28,612 bases of DNA from an uncultured Thermococci archaeon (GTDB lineage Archaea > Methanobacteriota_B > Thermococci > Thermococcales > Thermococcaceae). Below, one piece after another: positions 6,001 to 18,000 of the stretch. Position 1 is the stretch's first letter. Each line of letters opens with the position of its first letter. The stretch covers positions 1 through 28,612 of the forward strand of contig CAZTOS010000025.1 in NCBI GenBank assembly GCA_964615185.1, written 5' to 3'. A program made the position numbers.

Positions 6001-9000
6001 CCATTTCCATCCTTTTTAAGCGCTTCATAAATTGCGTCAAAGCTTCCCAGGTCATTCCAATATACGTTCAATGGCACAACTGCAGCTTTGTCAGTCTTCT
6101 CCATGATCCCGTAATCAACTGAGATATCTGGAACTAATTCATAAGCTTCCTCGATGCTTTTGGCTTCTTCAAATGCATTGTAGATTTCTGGAGTTAGTCT
6201 CTTGACTTCTTCAATGAAGAGTTCTGTGTCAAACATGAACATTCCACTGTTCCAATAGTAACCTTCCTCAACATATTTTTTTGCAGTCTCTAAGTCCGGT
6301 TTTTCTTTGAATTCAGCGACTTTATAACCGCCTTCCAACTTTTCTCCAGGCTTTATATATCCATAACCAGTATGAGGCCTTGTAGGTTTGATTCCAAATG
6401 TTACAAAGTAGTTCTCAGCAAGTTTTTCTGCTGTCTTAAAAGCTTTGATGTATTTTTCATTTACATCAATCAGGTGATCCGATGGTAGAACAGCAACTTT
6501 TGACTTCCCAAAATTCTCATGAATTATTTTCAGTCCCCAGTAAATCGCTGGAAGGGTGTTCTTTCCCACTGGTTCAAGAAGGACGTTCTCTTTTGGAATT
6601 TCAATACCCATATCCCTAAGCTCATCAAAAACTCTAAAGTGGTACTCCTTATTGGTTACTATGAAGATTTCCCTTGGTTTTGAGAAGAGCAGAGCTCTTT
6701 CTACAGTCTTCTGGAACAGTGAAGTGTCATCAAATATTCTTATGAACTGCTTTGGCATCAATTCTCTGCTTAAAGGCCATAGACGAGTTCCTTTTCCTCC
6801 AGCTAATATCAGCGTCTTCATTTTATCACCTCCAGCACTTCTTCTATTGAATTTATATTCACAGCATTTGGATGCTTTAGATTTCCTATTATGAACGCTT
6901 TTCCAACAACTTTAAATAGAGGAAAATCATTCAGCCCATCCCCAACGGCATATGTCTCAATATCTCCAAAGAACTTAGAATATAGGAGGAGCAAGATACG
7001 TGCAGCTTTTCCTTTGTTTGTGTTTCCATGAACATTATAAAATCTGCTTCCTTTTGAAATCTTAAGTCCCTTTGATTTCACTGCTTCGATGAACCCTTCA
7101 TCTTTCCAGCGAAAGATTGTTTCCGAATATTCCCTCATCATTGCAAGCTCTGCTAACTGTCTTGGAAGCCCCGTAAACTCCATGACCTCCTCAATGCTTG
7201 AGTTCCCATAATATTTCAGGCCAAACTTTTTACTAAGTTCATCAAGGATGTTTTTAATGAGTTCATACCTTTCACCAAGCTCTATAACAAAGTAACCCCC
7301 CACCTCTTTTGTAAAATTGAAACTAAATGGGAAATATTTCTTCGGAATATATATTGCACTTCCGGTTTCCACTATGAACGGGTCTTCAACATTTAAGGCT
7401 CTCCTGTAATACTCTTGCTCTGCCCTTGTTTTTGATGAATTAAAGACTATTCTAAACCCCCTTCTTTTTAGCTCATCAACTATAGCTCTGGCGGGTTCTG
7501 GAGAGTAATCCTCTCCAATCAATGTCTTGTCAAGGTCAAGGAATATCACCCTCATAAAACCACCTACAGTCTGCCATAGATTTGGTCAGTCTTTCTGTCA
7601 GATTATTATCTCAATACTCCTATTTATCACCCCAATGGTTAGAATAACCACGATCTTCAACCACTACAACGCTCTAAATCCCATGAGGTATTTAGTTAAG
7701 ATCAGTATATAAAATTTACCAAGACACTTTGACAAAGCCAAAATAAAAAGAGACAAAAACAAAGCCGCTAAATATAAACCACCATGCCGTCATAGGCAAC
7801 CATAACTCTGTCCCCATAGTTCTCATAAACATACTCAACAAGCTTTGTAAAGGGCAAGTTGTGGTGAGCAATATGAGTTAAATATACCTTTTCAGCAACT
7901 TTCAGTCCAATTTCTGCGGCTTCATCAACATTATTATGAGTCGGATTGTCGACACCGGGAGGGTACGTCGCATCAACAATAGCTATCTTGGGCTTTTTTC
8001 TTTTTAAAAATTCGAAGGTTTTCTCAGGTAAGCCCTTTGTATCGTATAGCACTGCAATTTTCTTCCGCTTGCTCTGCAGGAAATATCCAAGGGTTTCTGG
8101 AAAGTGGTTTAGTTTCAGTGCAGTCACCTTTAGAGGAGGAACCTTTATTACATCCCCAGCTTTTATGAATGAAATCTCCAAGTTTCTTGGTTCATTGAGT
8201 ATCGTAGCATCCGCACCTTCTCTGGGAGCATAGAGAGGCAATTTCTTTGCTATCCATCTGAGCCTGTAAAGACCATAGGTGTGATCATTATGCCAGTGGG
8301 TCAGAAGAACCGCTTTAATAGAAACCCCCGGCAAATGCTCACTTACATCCGTCCCCACATCAATTAAGATTATACCACCGCGCTTTGGCAGTATCGCAAG
8401 AGTTGGAGGTTTTCTCTGAGCAAAGCTAAATTTTCTCGCTTCTTGACAGGTTGGACAGTTGCACGATGCATTTGGTATCCCCTCTGAAGCTGCAGTCCCA
8501 ATGAAGTATAGTATCAACTTACCTTCCCCCAAGCTGTTTTTGTCTTATGGTACTTCTGCTTTGCTATAAAAAGGCTTTTGTTCAGTTACACTGTCATTTT
8601 TATGGATATACAACAACTTTTAATGCTTCTTTTTTCCTCATTAGCTCTATTCCCTTGTGAATGTCATCCAAAGAGACTCTGTGGGTTATTATATTTTTAA
8701 GGTCGTCAGTTTCTTTTTTCTTTAGAATTTCTATTGTCTGGTCAAAACTTCTTGCTGCAGCATATGATCCGAATATCTGTAACTCTTTCTGGTTCATCAA
8801 TGTAAAGCTAACATGATCGGCAAATGCATGTATATTCTGCTGACCGAATAAGGACACCCTTCCTCCTGGTCTAACAGCTTTAACTGCCAACTTCACGACT
8901 TCTGGAACTCCTGCGGCGTCTATAGCAACATCTACCCCATAGGATGTAAGCTCAGAAACAACCTCAAGAAGATCCTCTGAGGTCGGATCTACAACCCTTG

Positions 9001-15000: not shown

Positions 15001-18000
15001 GGTTTGGATGTACATACCGGGTTCAGCCAATCCTGGAGGTGAAGGAATATCGAACTCCTCCAGAATCCTATCTATCTCTTCATCGCTTGCCGTCCATATT
15101 TCTCGTTCTAATTTCCCAACAGGAGTATCTTCAAATACCAAATCTTTAGGAATTTCTCGACTCATTTTCAACCCTCACAAGATTCATAAATATCATGGCT
15201 TTATCATAACCTTTCCAATTTCGCTCTTCTTTTCGCTTGCGAGCTTCATTGCATCCAGGATTTCCTCTAATTTGAAGCGGTGAGTTACTATCTTCGTCAT
15301 GTCAATTTTTCCTGATGCCATTAGATTTATGACACTTGGGAATATGCCGTGACCAGAGTGCCCTTGAGCTCCAAATATCTGAGCCCTCCGCACTTGAAGA
15401 ACTTCAAACTGAACTGGAACATGGGTTACCGCTCTTCCAATTGCAACAACTTTTGCATTCACTTTCTCACCATTCCAAATTGCCTCTTCCATTGCAGGCC
15501 ATGTCTTCGGGAAAGCTCCAGCAGCTTCCACATACATATCAGCACCTTCTCCATGTGTGACTTCCAGTATTTTTCCGGAGACGGAATCTACCTGAGTGGG
15601 ATCAATAACTACATCTGCCCCCATTTCTTTTGCCATCTTCTGCCTAACCTTTGCAATTTCAACGGCAATGACTTTGGCAGCTCCTGCGGCTTTGGCAAGT
15701 GCAATTCCAGCCAGTCCTATAGGGCCAGCACCAAATATGACAACATAAGCACCTGGTCTAAAACCTCCTCCCCTTTCAAATATTCCATTGTAAGCAACAG
15801 AAGTTGGTTCAACAAGAGCACCCGCTTCATAACCCTTTTCTTCCCCATACTTCTCTACTAAATCCGTGATTTCCCAGACCACCCTTGCAGGAACTGCTAT
15901 GTATTCAGCAAAAGCTCCATCCCTGCTGAAGCCTATTTCTTCAAGGTTTATGCAGTGGTTAGGATATCCCTCTCTACAGGGTCTGCAGTATCCACACCAA
16001 ACCATTTCCTCGGCAGTCACTGGGGTTCCGACTTCAAATTTTTGTCCCCACTGGTTGTATGCCTTTTCTCCAACTTTGACTATTTCTCCTGAAAATTCAT
16101 GTCCAAGTACACATGGAAATGCTGTTAAACCTGGGTACAGTATGTATCCGTCGGAAGTTGATTCATACATGTGGATATCAGACCCACAAATTCCACATGC
16201 TTTGACTTTTATTAGAACCTCATCCTCCCTGATCTTCGGAATCGGTCTGCGTTCTAATCTTAATTCTGGATATCTCCAAACAAGTCCTCCCAAATATGTC
16301 AATTTTCCTTCAATGTCTTTTGGAGTTGGTTTGTACTCCGGTTTTGGGTCCCATTTTGCATATAAAACAGCTGCCAGCATGTCTTCCATAGTTCTCACCC
16401 ACACACTTTAAGAAACAAACATTATATAAGCATTATTTTTAAAATTTAAAGTCATATGCAAACAAAATTAACAAAAATAGGGCACAAATATGAGAAATAT
16501 CAGTTTAAATTCTTTTATCTGATGAATCAGTCCCATATATTCCCAATTACTTTCTAAAAATTTGGTAGATTGGAGATTGATGTTGCATTCCAATTAAAAT
16601 TTAATAACATAATGCCAAGACTGAGTTTAAACTCATTTGATCTTTTTAGATAGTATGATTGTTGTTACCATTTTGACACCTTCAATTGTGGAGATTGAAG
16701 AGAGGAGCTTAGACAATTCTTCCCGTGTTGGGGTGTGAACATGTATGCACATATCATATTCTCCAAGAACCTCATAAACATGAAGAACCCCTTTCATTCG
16801 TGCTATTTCCATCTCCACAGGAACCTGTCTGCTTTTGGGTTCTGTTTTTACGAAAAGGAATGCCATTATGCCATCCATTCTACACATCCTCCAAAAGCTG
16901 CCTGCTAATTCCGATTTTATGATCCTTAATTATGAGGAGTGTGTGAGTTGCAACTATCCCCTCTATTTTGGCCAGTGTTATGGCTAAGAACTCTCTCAGC
17001 TCGTTCATGTCCTTGACTACAATTTTTGCTATGAAATCATATGTTCCACCGATCTCATAAAGTTCTACAACCTCTTTTCTTTTCTTCAGCTCTCTAATTG
17101 CATCTGCTCTCTTTTTTGCCTCCACGCTTATTTCAACAAACGCCACTATGCTGTATCCTAATTTTGTAAAATTTATATTGGCTGAATATCCTTCTATTAC
17201 CCCCTTCTCCTCCAGCTTTTTTATTCTGTTTTTAACCCCCATAACACTCAGACCAACTTTCTTAGCAATTTCTGTAAGCGAAATTCTCGCATTATCCTTT
17301 AGCAAGATTAGGATTTTTTTGTCTATATCGTCAATCACATCCATCTATACACTCCCCATCCATAAATTCGCGCTTAGATGGTATATAATTCCTATGGTGT
17401 TTGTAACTATTATGGCGTCAATAAAGTTAAGAAACTCTTGTTAGTAAACCCGGTCTGGAGAGCATTCCAACACTTCTCAACAAGGTAAGGGCAAGATCAA
17501 CACCCGAATCTCTTGGAATGGTTTCATACTCCTTAAGACCTTTTGTGGAAACTACAATTCCTCCGCTATTGTCCGATATGTATACAAAGTTCTGCATTGG
17601 GTATCTCACCTCTGGAATTTCAGAATACTTATCCAAGTCTTGGGTACCTCTATTCTATTTGGCCATATACCATTCTCCGTCTTAATGTGTGAGGGAGAAA
17701 ATAAGAGTCCCTCCAGTTTAAAAGCTTTTCTACGGTAAAAGAGTTTTGGCATCTTCAATTAGCATATAGACAGCTGAAATATTGATAGGGGAAAGATTTC
17801 ATGGGCATAAAGCTTTAAAGATGTTTGCTCTTTATATAGTCCTATGAACGAGTTAACTGAAGAAGAAAAAGAATTTATAGAACGTGTAAAACCCATGCTC
17901 AAAAAGTTTTTAGAGTTATGTGAGAAAGAAGGAATCGAGCCAGGAGCAGGTTCCTATATTCTGTCTGAAAAAGGCAATATATATCATGGAGTTCCTTTTA

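Follow-up and report, generated by a model that had tools for sequence, protein, structure and literature searches.

The window, the 28,612-nt stretch of contig CAZTOS010000025.1 from an uncultured Thermococci archaeon that was analysed here, was found to carry on its minus strand a compact gene module, probably for inositol catabolism. The eight co-directional genes recognised in a preliminary description are all confirmed as closely spaced ORFs (8600-9679, 9690-10583, 10580-11590, 11553-12788, 12736-12999, 12996-14018, 14071-15171 and 15193-16404), with intergenic gaps of -4 to 52 nt. The conserved unit is bigger than these eight, including also two Lrp/AsnC-type regulator genes, a conserved promoter and probably the gene for a PhnP-like hydrolase. 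In the direction of transcription the features are:

16880..17344, minus strand: full-length Lrp/AsnC-family regulator (HTH + RAM; Pfam HTH_24, HTH_AsnC-type and AsnC_trans_reg)
16633..16887, minus strand: stand-alone RAM (ligand-binding) domain protein, 84 aa (Pfam AsnC_trans_reg only)
16423..16450, minus strand: conserved promoter region upstream of iolM, TTTAAATTTTAAA (16438-16450), then CTTATATA (16423-16430, TATA-box-like)
15193..16389, minus strand: IolM, predicted scyllo-inosose 3-dehydrogenase (Zn-MDR, NAD-type; NF041097); ORF to 16404, ATG at 16389
14071..15171, minus strand: IolN, predicted 3-dehydro-scyllo-inosose hydrolase (creatininase fold; NF041098)
12996..14018, minus strand: MDR_B, Zn-MDR dehydrogenase, proposed NADPH-dependent 5-keto-L-gluconate 5-reductase giving D-idonate
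12736..12999, minus strand: small subunit (SAF domain, 87 aa; Pfam SAF) of a split UxaA/GarD-type dehydratase
11553..12731, minus strand: UxaA/GarD-type split dehydratase, large subunit (Pfam GD_AH_second + GD_AH_C); ORF to 12788
10580..11542, minus strand: PfkB-family 2-keto-3-deoxy-hexonate kinase (KDG/KDGal kinase-like); alternative ORF start 11590
9690..10583, minus strand: class I aldolase (DapA/DHDPS family), proposed to act on KDPGal/KDPG and to give pyruvate + glyceraldehyde-3-phosphate
8600..9679, minus strand: MDR_A, Zn-MDR dehydrogenase (NAD-type), proposed inositol dehydrogenase replacing IolG
7768..8532, minus strand: PhnP-like metallo-beta-lactamase-fold phosphodiesterase, island-specific paralogue (TIGR03307, PDB 3g1p)

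The earlier identification of IolM and of IolN, whose gene adjoins iolM, was confirmed with the curated NCBI models. IolM scored 553.7 bits against NF041097 (equivalog cut-off 450) and 487 bits against PDB chain 3ip1, which we take to be the T. maritima protein. It contains the catalytic Cys, the His-Glu, four structural-zinc Cys and, at the end of β2, the Glu of an NAD-type Rossmann fold. IolN gave 346.9 bits with NF041098 (347.1 in the genome scan; cut-off 245) and is the sole copy above the cut-off in the window genome, and its residues are kept across 18 homologues. Both proteins are members of their families, with predicted activities on scyllo-inosose and 3-dehydro-scyllo-inosose, respectively.

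The module occurs in six of 99 Thermococcales genomes, that of the window (completeness 95.6%) included, and IolN is above the NF041098 cut-off in five of the 98 others, as had been counted. The reported collinearity was also reproduced: each of these five carriers gives one blastn HSP of 73.4–74.8% nucleotide identity with the same gene order, the ten-gene order is unchanged, and flanks and orientation vary. The module sits within an island of 22–24 kb that interrupts a mannosylglycerate operon. The IolN copies closest to that of the window are on the metagenome contigs L105 (80%) and L164 (77%), where, in two gene orders that differ from that of the window, IolN is joined to MDR_B, the SAF and large subunits, a kinase and an aldolase. 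The neighbourhoods of IolN homologues include IolM in 67, an IolG-like protein in 59 and an IolO-like protein in 62 of 80 genome loci; IolM is near IolN in 38 of 79 metagenome loci, many of those contigs being short. Canonical IolG-IolM-IolN-IolO sets were found in Nitrososphaeria MAGs. The label ‘Thermotoga-type’ is too narrow for a family as large as IolM/IolN.

The full-length Lrp/AsnC protein had only Lrp-type, sub-cut-off matches in NCBIfam. All five other carriers have its gene collinear with the operon (67–71% amino acid identity). In the window it overlaps by 8 nt the gene for the RAM protein, which accompanies it in the same five genomes (65–78% identity); the full-length protein is a candidate regulator of the iol operon. 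The promoter region lies about 35 nt before the iolM ATG, and its two sequence blocks, the only long invariant ones in six aligned LrpS-iolM intergenic regions, may represent an operator and a TATA box.

Neither IolG nor IolO had been seen in the cluster, and this was corroborated by model searches. For IolG, the best GFO proteins of the window genome reached 139–180 bits (top 179.6) with a cut-off of 355. The suggestion that GFO/IDH-family proteins encoded elsewhere might supply IolG is not upheld: one candidate is a UDP-GlcNAc 3-dehydrogenase, while the other, a pair widespread in the order, does not track the iol cluster, because its orthologues occur in 60 of 98 other genomes. The proposal that the two additional MDR dehydrogenases take over the missing steps is supported computationally, their exact roles being putative. 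Each of them falls under every equivalog cut-off and neither matches a characterised subfamily. MDR_A was also considered as Tdh and rejected, the true Tdh being encoded on contig C83 (601.6 bits).

MDR_A closes the operon in all carriers, its β2 ends in a Glu, and at two further loci (L050, L064) an MDR 43% identical to it is encoded directly after IolM-IolN. It might be the inositol dehydrogenase standing for IolG, which is the weakest assignment made here. As a family, the MDR_A-like proteins are not general replacements for IolG, because members 33–37% identical to MDR_A occur together with IolG in many Anaerolineae loci. This co-occurrence would also suit a different distribution of roles, in which IolM or an unlinked enzyme also performs the first oxidation and MDR_A serves another entry, for example that of scyllo- or chiro-inositol or of an L-hexonate whose C5 oxidation gives 5-keto-L-gluconate, or in which entry falls to MDR_B and the reduction to MDR_A. 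Hexonate oxidation at C5 is a known MDR activity, MDR_A gives 166 bits with the L-idonate 5-dehydrogenase model, and it is missing from L105 and L164, both of them short contigs. Such assignments are nevertheless unlikely, as the constant partner of the dehydratase is MDR_B and not MDR_A, the NAD-type residue is present in MDR_A and absent in MDR_B, and an MDR_A-like gene follows IolM-IolN in L050 and L064.

The MDR_B gene is immediately upstream of the split dehydratase genes in the window, in five relatives and also in the differently arranged L105 and L164. The NAD-specifying acidic residue after GxGxxG, retained in IolM, MDR_A and Tdh, is replaced in MDR_B by GTK and a 3-residue insert, also in L105 and L164, and by this sequence rule the cofactor is predicted to be NADPH. 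The best IolO scores were 29 bits in the window genome and at most 19.8 bits in the five other carriers, one of which is a one-contig genome 99% complete (cut-off 300), and no match was obtained when two IolO sequences were run by tblastn. With no IolO epimerase, MDR_B is proposed to reduce 5-keto-L-gluconate at C5 to D-idonate, so that the chemistry would proceed via D-idonate and KDGal (2-keto-3-deoxy-D-galactonate), not altronate and KDG.

As described earlier, the altronate-dehydratase-type enzyme is split, SAF, GD_AH_second and GD_AH_C being matched over two ORFs (Pfam). The SAF subunit aligns with positions 3–78 of the galactarate dehydratase model. The large subunit, single copy in the window genome, has its start at M20, which matches the 392-aa database entry P0121. 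The score against the galactarate dehydratase GarD (TIGR03248) is 186.9 bits, under the equivalog cut-off of 730.85. Four conserved Cys are the proposed iron site of UxaA/GarD dehydratases, a superfamily to which D-idonate dehydratase is assigned (PMC6336799). In the large subunit, a comparison among 19 homologues shows four conserved Cys: C149 never varies, and C27, C51 and C84 are each kept in 90% or more of the sequences. The enzyme is putatively a D-idonate dehydratase giving KDGal; superfamily membership does not guarantee this substrate, because the UxaA-type LguB of Luteolibacter is reported as inactive on D-idonate (PMC12632266).

The Thermotoga chemistry could instead operate through hidden stand-ins: D-tagaturonate would come from a promiscuous activity or from an epimerase that escaped recognition, an MDR acting like UxaB would form D-altronate, and the split enzyme, as altronate dehydratase, would lead to KDG and then KDPG. 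T. maritima and Luteolibacter (PMC12632266 for the latter) use this route, databases usually label the large-subunit family ‘altronate dehydratase large subunit’, and the kinase family takes KDG as well as KDGal. We regard this as improbable, since there is no IolO-like protein in any of the six carriers, the conserved module has no spare gene of unknown function, and the iol-linked dehydratases form a close-knit group (57–79% identity) apart from the generic family (at most 49%).

In pectin breakdown by KduI/KduD, the reductase works on a diketo-deoxy acid. By this precedent the dehydratase could act first, on 5-keto-L-gluconate, and MDR_B would then reduce C5 of the resulting 2,5-diketo-3-deoxy-hexonate, KduD-like, to KDGal, with the same end product and gene set and in keeping with the MDR_B gene always being directly next to the dehydratase genes. 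This reversed order is very doubtful, as MDR_B is ahead of the dehydratase in every gene order and, among the superfamily members listed in PMC6336799, the dehydratases act on fully reduced aldonates or aldarates, the other listed member, SuyAB, being a sulfolactate sulfo-lyase.

The kinase had been called a haloarchaeal-type KDG kinase; its best model is indeed NF041332 (KDG_KDGal_kin_Halo), but the 337.4 bits are under the equivalog cut-off of 440. The PfkB fold was confirmed, the PDB KDG kinases 2afb, 2v78, 1wye and 1v19 are matched, the L105 homologue begins at the equivalent Met, and the substrate is probably of the KDG/KDGal type. The aldolase belongs, as stated before, to the DHDPS family (Pfam, 277.7 bits); it exceeds the cut-off for DapA (TIGR00674, 250.6 bits vs 206.15) and remains under the equivalog cut-off of the archaeal KD(P)G aldolase (NF040954, 182.9 bits vs 390). 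DapB had no match in the window genome (95.6% complete). In L164, whose kinase and aldolase are non-orthologous to those of the window, another DHDPS-family protein (33% identity) occupies the aldolase position. A role as KDPGal/KDPG aldolase is proposed.

The preferred reading, held with moderate confidence, is a self-contained Lrp-regulated operon of a small Thermococcales subset that would break down myo-inositol or an isomer close to it, via 5-keto-L-gluconate, D-idonate and KDGal. The NAD-type MDR_A would oxidise inositol to scyllo-inosose, IolM would convert this into 3-dehydro-scyllo-inosose, and IolN would open the ring to 5-keto-L-gluconate, family membership being established for the enzymes of the last two steps. 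The NADPH-type MDR_B would then give D-idonate by C5 reduction and the Fe-type split dehydratase (SAF + large subunit) KDGal, which the PfkB kinase, whose family is likewise established, would phosphorylate at C6 and the DapA-family aldolase would cleave to pyruvate and D-glyceraldehyde-3-phosphate. As far as computation reaches, the core of the preliminary description, IolM and IolN joined to non-Thermotoga enzymes with the product fed to pyruvate and GAP, is upheld.

The module is without a transporter gene, so its substrate may derive from the cell's own inositol pool. The PhnP-like protein scores 160.7 bits against TIGR03307, under the equivalog cut-off of 272.25, and aligns with PDB PhnP 3g1p over residues 6-224 (E 1.7e-36), with a visible HxHxDH motif. 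This island copy was found only in four of the five other iol carriers (68–81% identity), always adjoining the module; in eight of nine genomes of genus g3 the gene for inositol-phosphate synthase is followed by that for a housekeeping paralogue. Speculatively, the island protein could free inositol from di-myo-inositol phosphate or inositol cyclic phosphate.

No demonstration of inositol breakdown in any archaeon was found in the searchable literature, consistent with the earlier statement that such a route is not described for Archaea. The module would share with the Bacillus subtilis-type iolABCDEGJ pathway its substrate and a closing kinase and aldolase, but the cluster has no IolE, IolD or IolB homologues and the ring-cleavage mechanism is another. 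SuyAB, the (R)-sulfolactate sulfo-lyase, also consists of a small SAF and a large subunit; it is described as lacking four Cys that the dehydratases conserve (PMC6336799), whereas the window's large subunit has four conserved Cys. As in the semi-phosphorylative Entner-Doudoroff pathway of Sulfolobus and Haloferax, the PfkB kinase is best matched by KDG/KDGal kinase models and the aldolase is of the DHDPS-fold Schiff-base type, whereas both are sub-equivalog here (337 vs 440 and 183 vs 390) and the aldolase resembles archaeal KD(P)G aldolases less closely than it does DapA sequences.

In Paracoccus sp. 43P, the conversion of 5-keto-L-gluconate via D-idonate, KDGal and KDPGal into pyruvate and GAP is reported as established (PMC12632266). 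The L-gluconate (lgn) branch of its L-glucose catabolism matches the chemistry proposed here after 5-keto-L-gluconate (PMC12632266, PMC6336799), with a UxaA/GarD-type D-idonate dehydratase, a KDGal kinase and a KDPGal aldolase. There, 5-keto-L-gluconate comes from L-gluconate oxidation, whereas in the window it would come from opening of a diketo-inositol ring, and the window dehydratase has two subunits. The T. maritima pathway, as outlined in papers citing Rodionova et al. (2013), comprises IolG, IolM, IolN and IolO, then UxaB/UxaA, KdgK and KdgA. Relative to that outline, the module lacks IolG, IolO, a ROK-type IolR (its regulators are Lrp-type), a TM0415-like kinase and an ABC transporter; its reductase is an MDR, its dehydratase is split, its aldolase is of the DapA family, and D-idonate and KDGal are predicted as intermediates in place of tagaturonate, altronate and KDG. 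Common to both are equivalog-level IolM and IolN, 5-keto-L-gluconate as an intermediate and the end in a 2-keto-3-deoxy-6-phospho-hexonate, then pyruvate and GAP. If the proposed route is true, it would be an archaeal inositol pathway that shares just two middle enzymes with that of Thermotoga.

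The window takes in the whole of a 28.6-kb contig from a Thermococcales genome in 138 contigs (95.6% complete). The eight co-directional genes of the preliminary description were borne out as eight minus-strand ORFs within 8600-16404, with an intergenic spacing of -4 to 52 nt. Two of the products, previously named IolM (scyllo-inosose 3-dehydrogenase) and IolN (3-dehydro-scyllo-inosose hydrolase), score above the curated NCBIfam cut-offs (553.7 bits against 450 and 346.9 bits against 245, respectively), in agreement with those names. The other products are as follows.

12996-14018, minus strand: MDR_B, a Zn-MDR dehydrogenase
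8600-9679, minus strand: MDR_A, a Zn-MDR dehydrogenase
Remaining ORFs within 8600-16404, minus strand: a SAF-domain protein of 87 aa, a GD_AH large subunit, a PfkB kinase and a DHDPS-family lyase

The top model for the kinase is the haloarchaeal KDG/KDGal (2-keto-3-deoxy-gluconate/-galactonate) kinase (337.4 bits, cut-off 440). The lyase, referred to below as the aldolase, exceeds the DapA cut-off (250.6 bits against 206), and no DapB was found in the genome. Judged from sequence, translation of the large subunit probably starts at M20 (12731), which matches a 392-aa database entry (P0121), and that of the kinase is likely to start at M17 (11542), as in the metagenome locus L105.

IolN was found above cut-off in 5 of the 98 other Thermococcales genomes, as reported earlier, and all five carriers align to 8600-16389 as one HSP of 73.4-74.8% nucleotide identity, so that the collinearity described for them also stands. 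A ten-gene order is common to the five, namely an Lrp/AsnC regulator, a RAM-only small protein, IolM, IolN, MDR_B, SAF protein, large subunit, kinase, aldolase and MDR_A. The flanks of this module vary among carriers, and one of them (locus L014) has the module in reverse orientation to the neighbouring genes. The six spacers between the regulator gene and iolM have only two long invariant blocks, TTTAAATTTTAAA (16438-16450) and CTTATATA (16423-16430, minus strand), located about 35 nt before the iolM ATG at 16389 and interpreted as a putative operator-like element and TATA box.

The Thermotoga-type IolG and IolO had been reported missing, and the searches agreed. The best score for IolO (cut-off 300) was 29 bits in the genome of the window and no higher than 19.8 bits in any of the other five carriers, of which two have essentially closed genomes; a tblastn search with two IolO proteins found nothing. 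The search of the genome for IolG (cut-off 355) returned three GFO proteins at 139-180 bits, and the GFO/IDH candidates share 26-33% identity with the IolG of loci L017 and L024. The earlier suggestion that such proteins could supply IolG from elsewhere in the genome did not hold. The one on contig C60 was ruled out as a UDP-GlcNAc 3-dehydrogenase (499.9 bits, cut-off 450), and the tandem pair on contig C17 was ruled out as part of a sugar ABC-transporter operon with orthologues (at least 66% identity) in 60 of the 98 other genomes, a distribution that does not track the iol cluster. It is the first oxidoreductase of the pair that is kept in these 60 genomes. The C17 operon (17990-24379; 3191-9580 in L177), in which the binding protein is without a family match, adjoins a homologue of the GH38-like 'mannosylglycerate hydrolase' (492 bits, below its cut-off).

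In the Thermotoga-type route, inositol is oxidized to 2-keto-inositol and then by IolM to diketo-inositol, which IolN converts to 5-keto-L-gluconate (PMC5931981, PMC12632266). Two fates of this product are described. In the first, epimerization at C4 by IolO or LguG gives D-tagaturonate, which proceeds to D-altronate and KDG (PMC5931981, PMC12632266). In the second, described for Paracoccus 43P, it is reduced to D-idonate and dehydrated to KDGal, which is phosphorylated and then cleaved to pyruvate and D-GAP (PMC12632266). Since all carriers lack an epimerase, the gene set exactly matches what the second fate would need, namely one each of a reductase, a UxaA/GarD dehydratase, a KDG/KDGal-type kinase and a Schiff-base aldolase. 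The UxaA/GarD superfamily, whose dehydratases have four Cys in common, includes D-idonate dehydratase (PMC6336799), and four conserved Cys are present in the large subunit of the window. By our own reading of Fischer projections, D-GAP would be obtained only if the reduction at C5 gave the D configuration, and D-idonate, D-altronate and L-gluconate have the same configuration at C2 and C3, the one on which this superfamily acts. For all enzymes of the operon, we infer the substrates beyond family membership.

MDR_B is the candidate for the reduction of 5-keto-L-gluconate. Its gene lies immediately upstream of the dehydratase genes in each of three gene orders, and MDR_B alone has the NAD-specifying Glu replaced by Gly-Thr-Lys together with a 3-residue insert, a feature also present in loci L105 and L164; this cofactor motif points to a reductase by a sequence rule, which is not a proof. 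MDR_A retains the Glu, is the last enzyme left without a role, and in loci L050 and L064 has a counterpart of 43% identity that comes immediately after IolM-IolN; for these reasons it was assigned the first oxidation, a role that it may or may not perform with roughly equal probability. The genomes of L050 and L064 encode 32-33 GFO paralogues and have an IolO-like gene elsewhere (280-283 bits). The Tdh-like MDRs of the window's genome comprise a true Tdh on contig C83 (601.6 bits) and the three of the cluster only. Look-alikes of MDR_A and MDR_B in the ESM Atlas fell only into generic Zn-alcohol-dehydrogenase clusters, and their sequence matches in the PDB, being likewise generic (Tdh, alcohol or polyol dehydrogenases), gave no clue to the substrate. 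Two 59%-identical relatives of MDR_A (P0248 and P0256) come from sources named as Patescibacteria/Parcubacteria-group bacteria, an odd occurrence for such small genomes.

IolN belongs to a large family; of the 8000 candidates scored, 2382 proteins reached E <= 1e-20. Of 80 loci of IolN homologues from species-representative genomes, 67 have IolM, 59 an IolG-like gene, 62 an IolO-like gene and none the split UxaA-type dehydratase; absence from a locus is a lower bound because many of the comparison contigs are short. Among 79 metagenome loci, a set from which L097 was left out as the window itself, the split dehydratase occurs only in L105 (IolN 80% identical) and L164 (77%). The order in L105 is MDR_B, SAF protein, large subunit, kinase, aldolase and IolN; in L164, IolN faces MDR_B, SAF protein, large subunit, aldolase and kinase, the last two being other members of their families (33-34% identity; the top model for the kinase is the crenarchaeal KDG/KDGal type), and an archaeal RFC gene adjoins these genes. 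Large subunits linked to iol genes group closely together (57-79% identity) and share no more than 49% identity with the generic family of 'altronate dehydratase large subunit' proteins; the source of one iol-linked subunit is named as an Archaeoglobales archaeon.

A branch with 98% SH-aLRT support in the IolN tree sets apart the six Thermococcales sequences, L105 and the database protein P0002; beyond it come further archaeal and metagenome sequences, followed by a mostly bacterial clade (100% support). The outgroup, a creatininase paralogue from the genome, has a branch length of 10, too long to root the tree or to show a direction of transfer. Two loci from Nitrososphaeria MAGs have the canonical set of IolG-like protein (286-298 bits), IolM, IolN and IolO (271-301 bits, within the locus or elsewhere in the genome), and thus Archaea besides Thermococcales hold Thermotoga-type genes. 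L017 and L031, and also L134, are Nitrososphaeria MAG loci with canonical IolG-like, IolM and IolN genes, which in L031 come after a sugar ABC transporter; IolN was also seen on Hadarchaeales and Bathyarchaeia MAG contigs.

A different downstream variant was seen in L083 (3071-13790) and relatives from Anaerolineae and Acidobacteriota, such as L039, L052, L061 and L078. There, IolG-IolN-IolM-IolO genes lie beside an SDR 'D-mannonate oxidoreductase'-like gene, a LarA-like nickel-dependent 'putative hexonate epimerase', a 6-phosphogluconate dehydrogenase, a PfkB kinase and an MDR, which suggests an exit via a 6-phospho-hexonate to ribulose-5-phosphate. Both LarA and Gnd are present in 23 of the 80 genome loci and 4 of the 79 metagenome loci.

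The surroundings of the module place it within a mannosylglycerate operon, part of which is present in the window.

3673-7555: mannosylglycerate genes MPGP (292 bits, cut-off 244), ManC and PMM

MPGS is on a different contig of the same genome (C62, 512-1639). The gap between MPGS and MPGP is 50 nt in a same-genus genome without the cluster, and 22.7 and about 24 kb in two carriers, one per genus, where the iol module, a PhnP-like gene and GH130/PMI(/GH1) genes occupy the intervening stretch. This island splits the mannosylglycerate genes. The flanking PMM and ManC proteins track the genus, with 97/88% identity to same-genus copies and 86/78% to those of the other genus. Several cluster proteins are equally close or closer to the other genus, for example the large subunit (77-79% versus 72% to the same genus) and MDR_A (88-89% versus 84%), so the module has its own history within the order. 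The island exemplifies a catabolic island swapped within Thermococcales at one fixed site.

A beta-mannoside-type module at 22139-28008, consisting of a GH1 (BgaS model, 547 bits, cut-off 475), three GH130 (two of which match the family in the C-terminal part only) and a type I phosphomannose isomerase (PMI), adjoins the iol module wherever a carrier's contig extends that far. A 133-aa ORF between PMM and ManC (5057-5458), overlapping the 3' (stop) end of ManC by 20 nt, had no match in Pfam or NCBIfam. Two adjoining minus-strand ORFs at 2580-3623 (194 and 149 aa) each match the N-terminal third alone of the ArsP_1 'predicted permease' profile, and may be half-size paralogues or one disrupted gene.

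The island includes one further gene next to the operon.

7768-8532, minus strand: PhnP-like gene (PhnP model 160.7 bits, under the cut-off of 272; PDB 3g1p, E 1.7e-36)

Most Thermococcales have one PhnP-like paralogue (56-62% identity). A second copy (68-81%) is confined to four of the other five iol carriers and in each of them lies next to the module; in the fifth the contig stops at MDR_A. In genus g3, coordinates place the common paralogue within 2 kb of an inositol-phosphate synthase domain in 8 of 9 genomes, and at two inspected loci (L187, 4460-6428; L186, 4543-6824) a PhnP-like MBL gene comes immediately after the synthase gene, in the same orientation; the gap in L187 is 34 nt. This proximity ties the PhnP-like family to inositol-phosphate metabolism. 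Two genomes of genus g4 (G018 and G025) have an additional, 46-47% identical PhnP-like copy within about 1 kb of the synthase gene. To our knowledge, no function has been described for a PhnP-like gene following an inositol-phosphate synthase gene.

Di-myo-inositol phosphate (DIP) is the signature heat-protective solute of hyperthermophiles and is accumulated by Thermococcales under heat stress; we know of no account of how they dispose of or reuse its inositol. An inositol phosphate synthase is encoded in 98 of the 99 Thermococcales genomes. Speculatively, the island copy of the PhnP-like protein might free inositol from DIP or a cyclic inositol phosphate, and an internal substrate fits a module without a transporter. 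A possible, though rather improbable, function of the whole island is thus DIP recycling or scavenging. The island-specific PhnP-like phosphodiesterase would cleave DIP or inositol cyclic phosphate, the operon would convert the inositol to pyruvate and GAP by the D-idonate/KDGal route, and the adjoining GH130, GH1 and PMI genes might process beta-mannosylated forms of the solute. If correct, this would be the first catabolic pathway in Archaea for DIP and for inositol, and would give a function to the PhnP-like gene behind the synthase gene in genus g3.

The literature searched, which did not cover subscription journals, yielded no paper on an IolM/IolN route in Archaea, in line with the earlier statement that the route is not described for Archaea. 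A 2022 genome survey (PMC9430895) places inositol degradation by iol clusters so far in Bacteria only, and B. subtilis-type iol genes are mentioned for soil Thaumarchaeota genomes in PMC10640624. The D-idonate/KDGal exit is not known downstream of inositol; if confirmed, it would mean that the IolM/IolN ring-opening pair can plug into a second downstream chemistry. The operon offers a concrete, testable eight-enzyme route in organisms with genetic tools and would provide thermostable enzymes for rare sugar acids. The chemistry proposed for it from 5-keto-L-gluconate through D-idonate to KDGal is that of Paracoccus 43P, whereas with the Thermotoga-type route it would share the IolM/IolN pair but not the IolO epimerase step.
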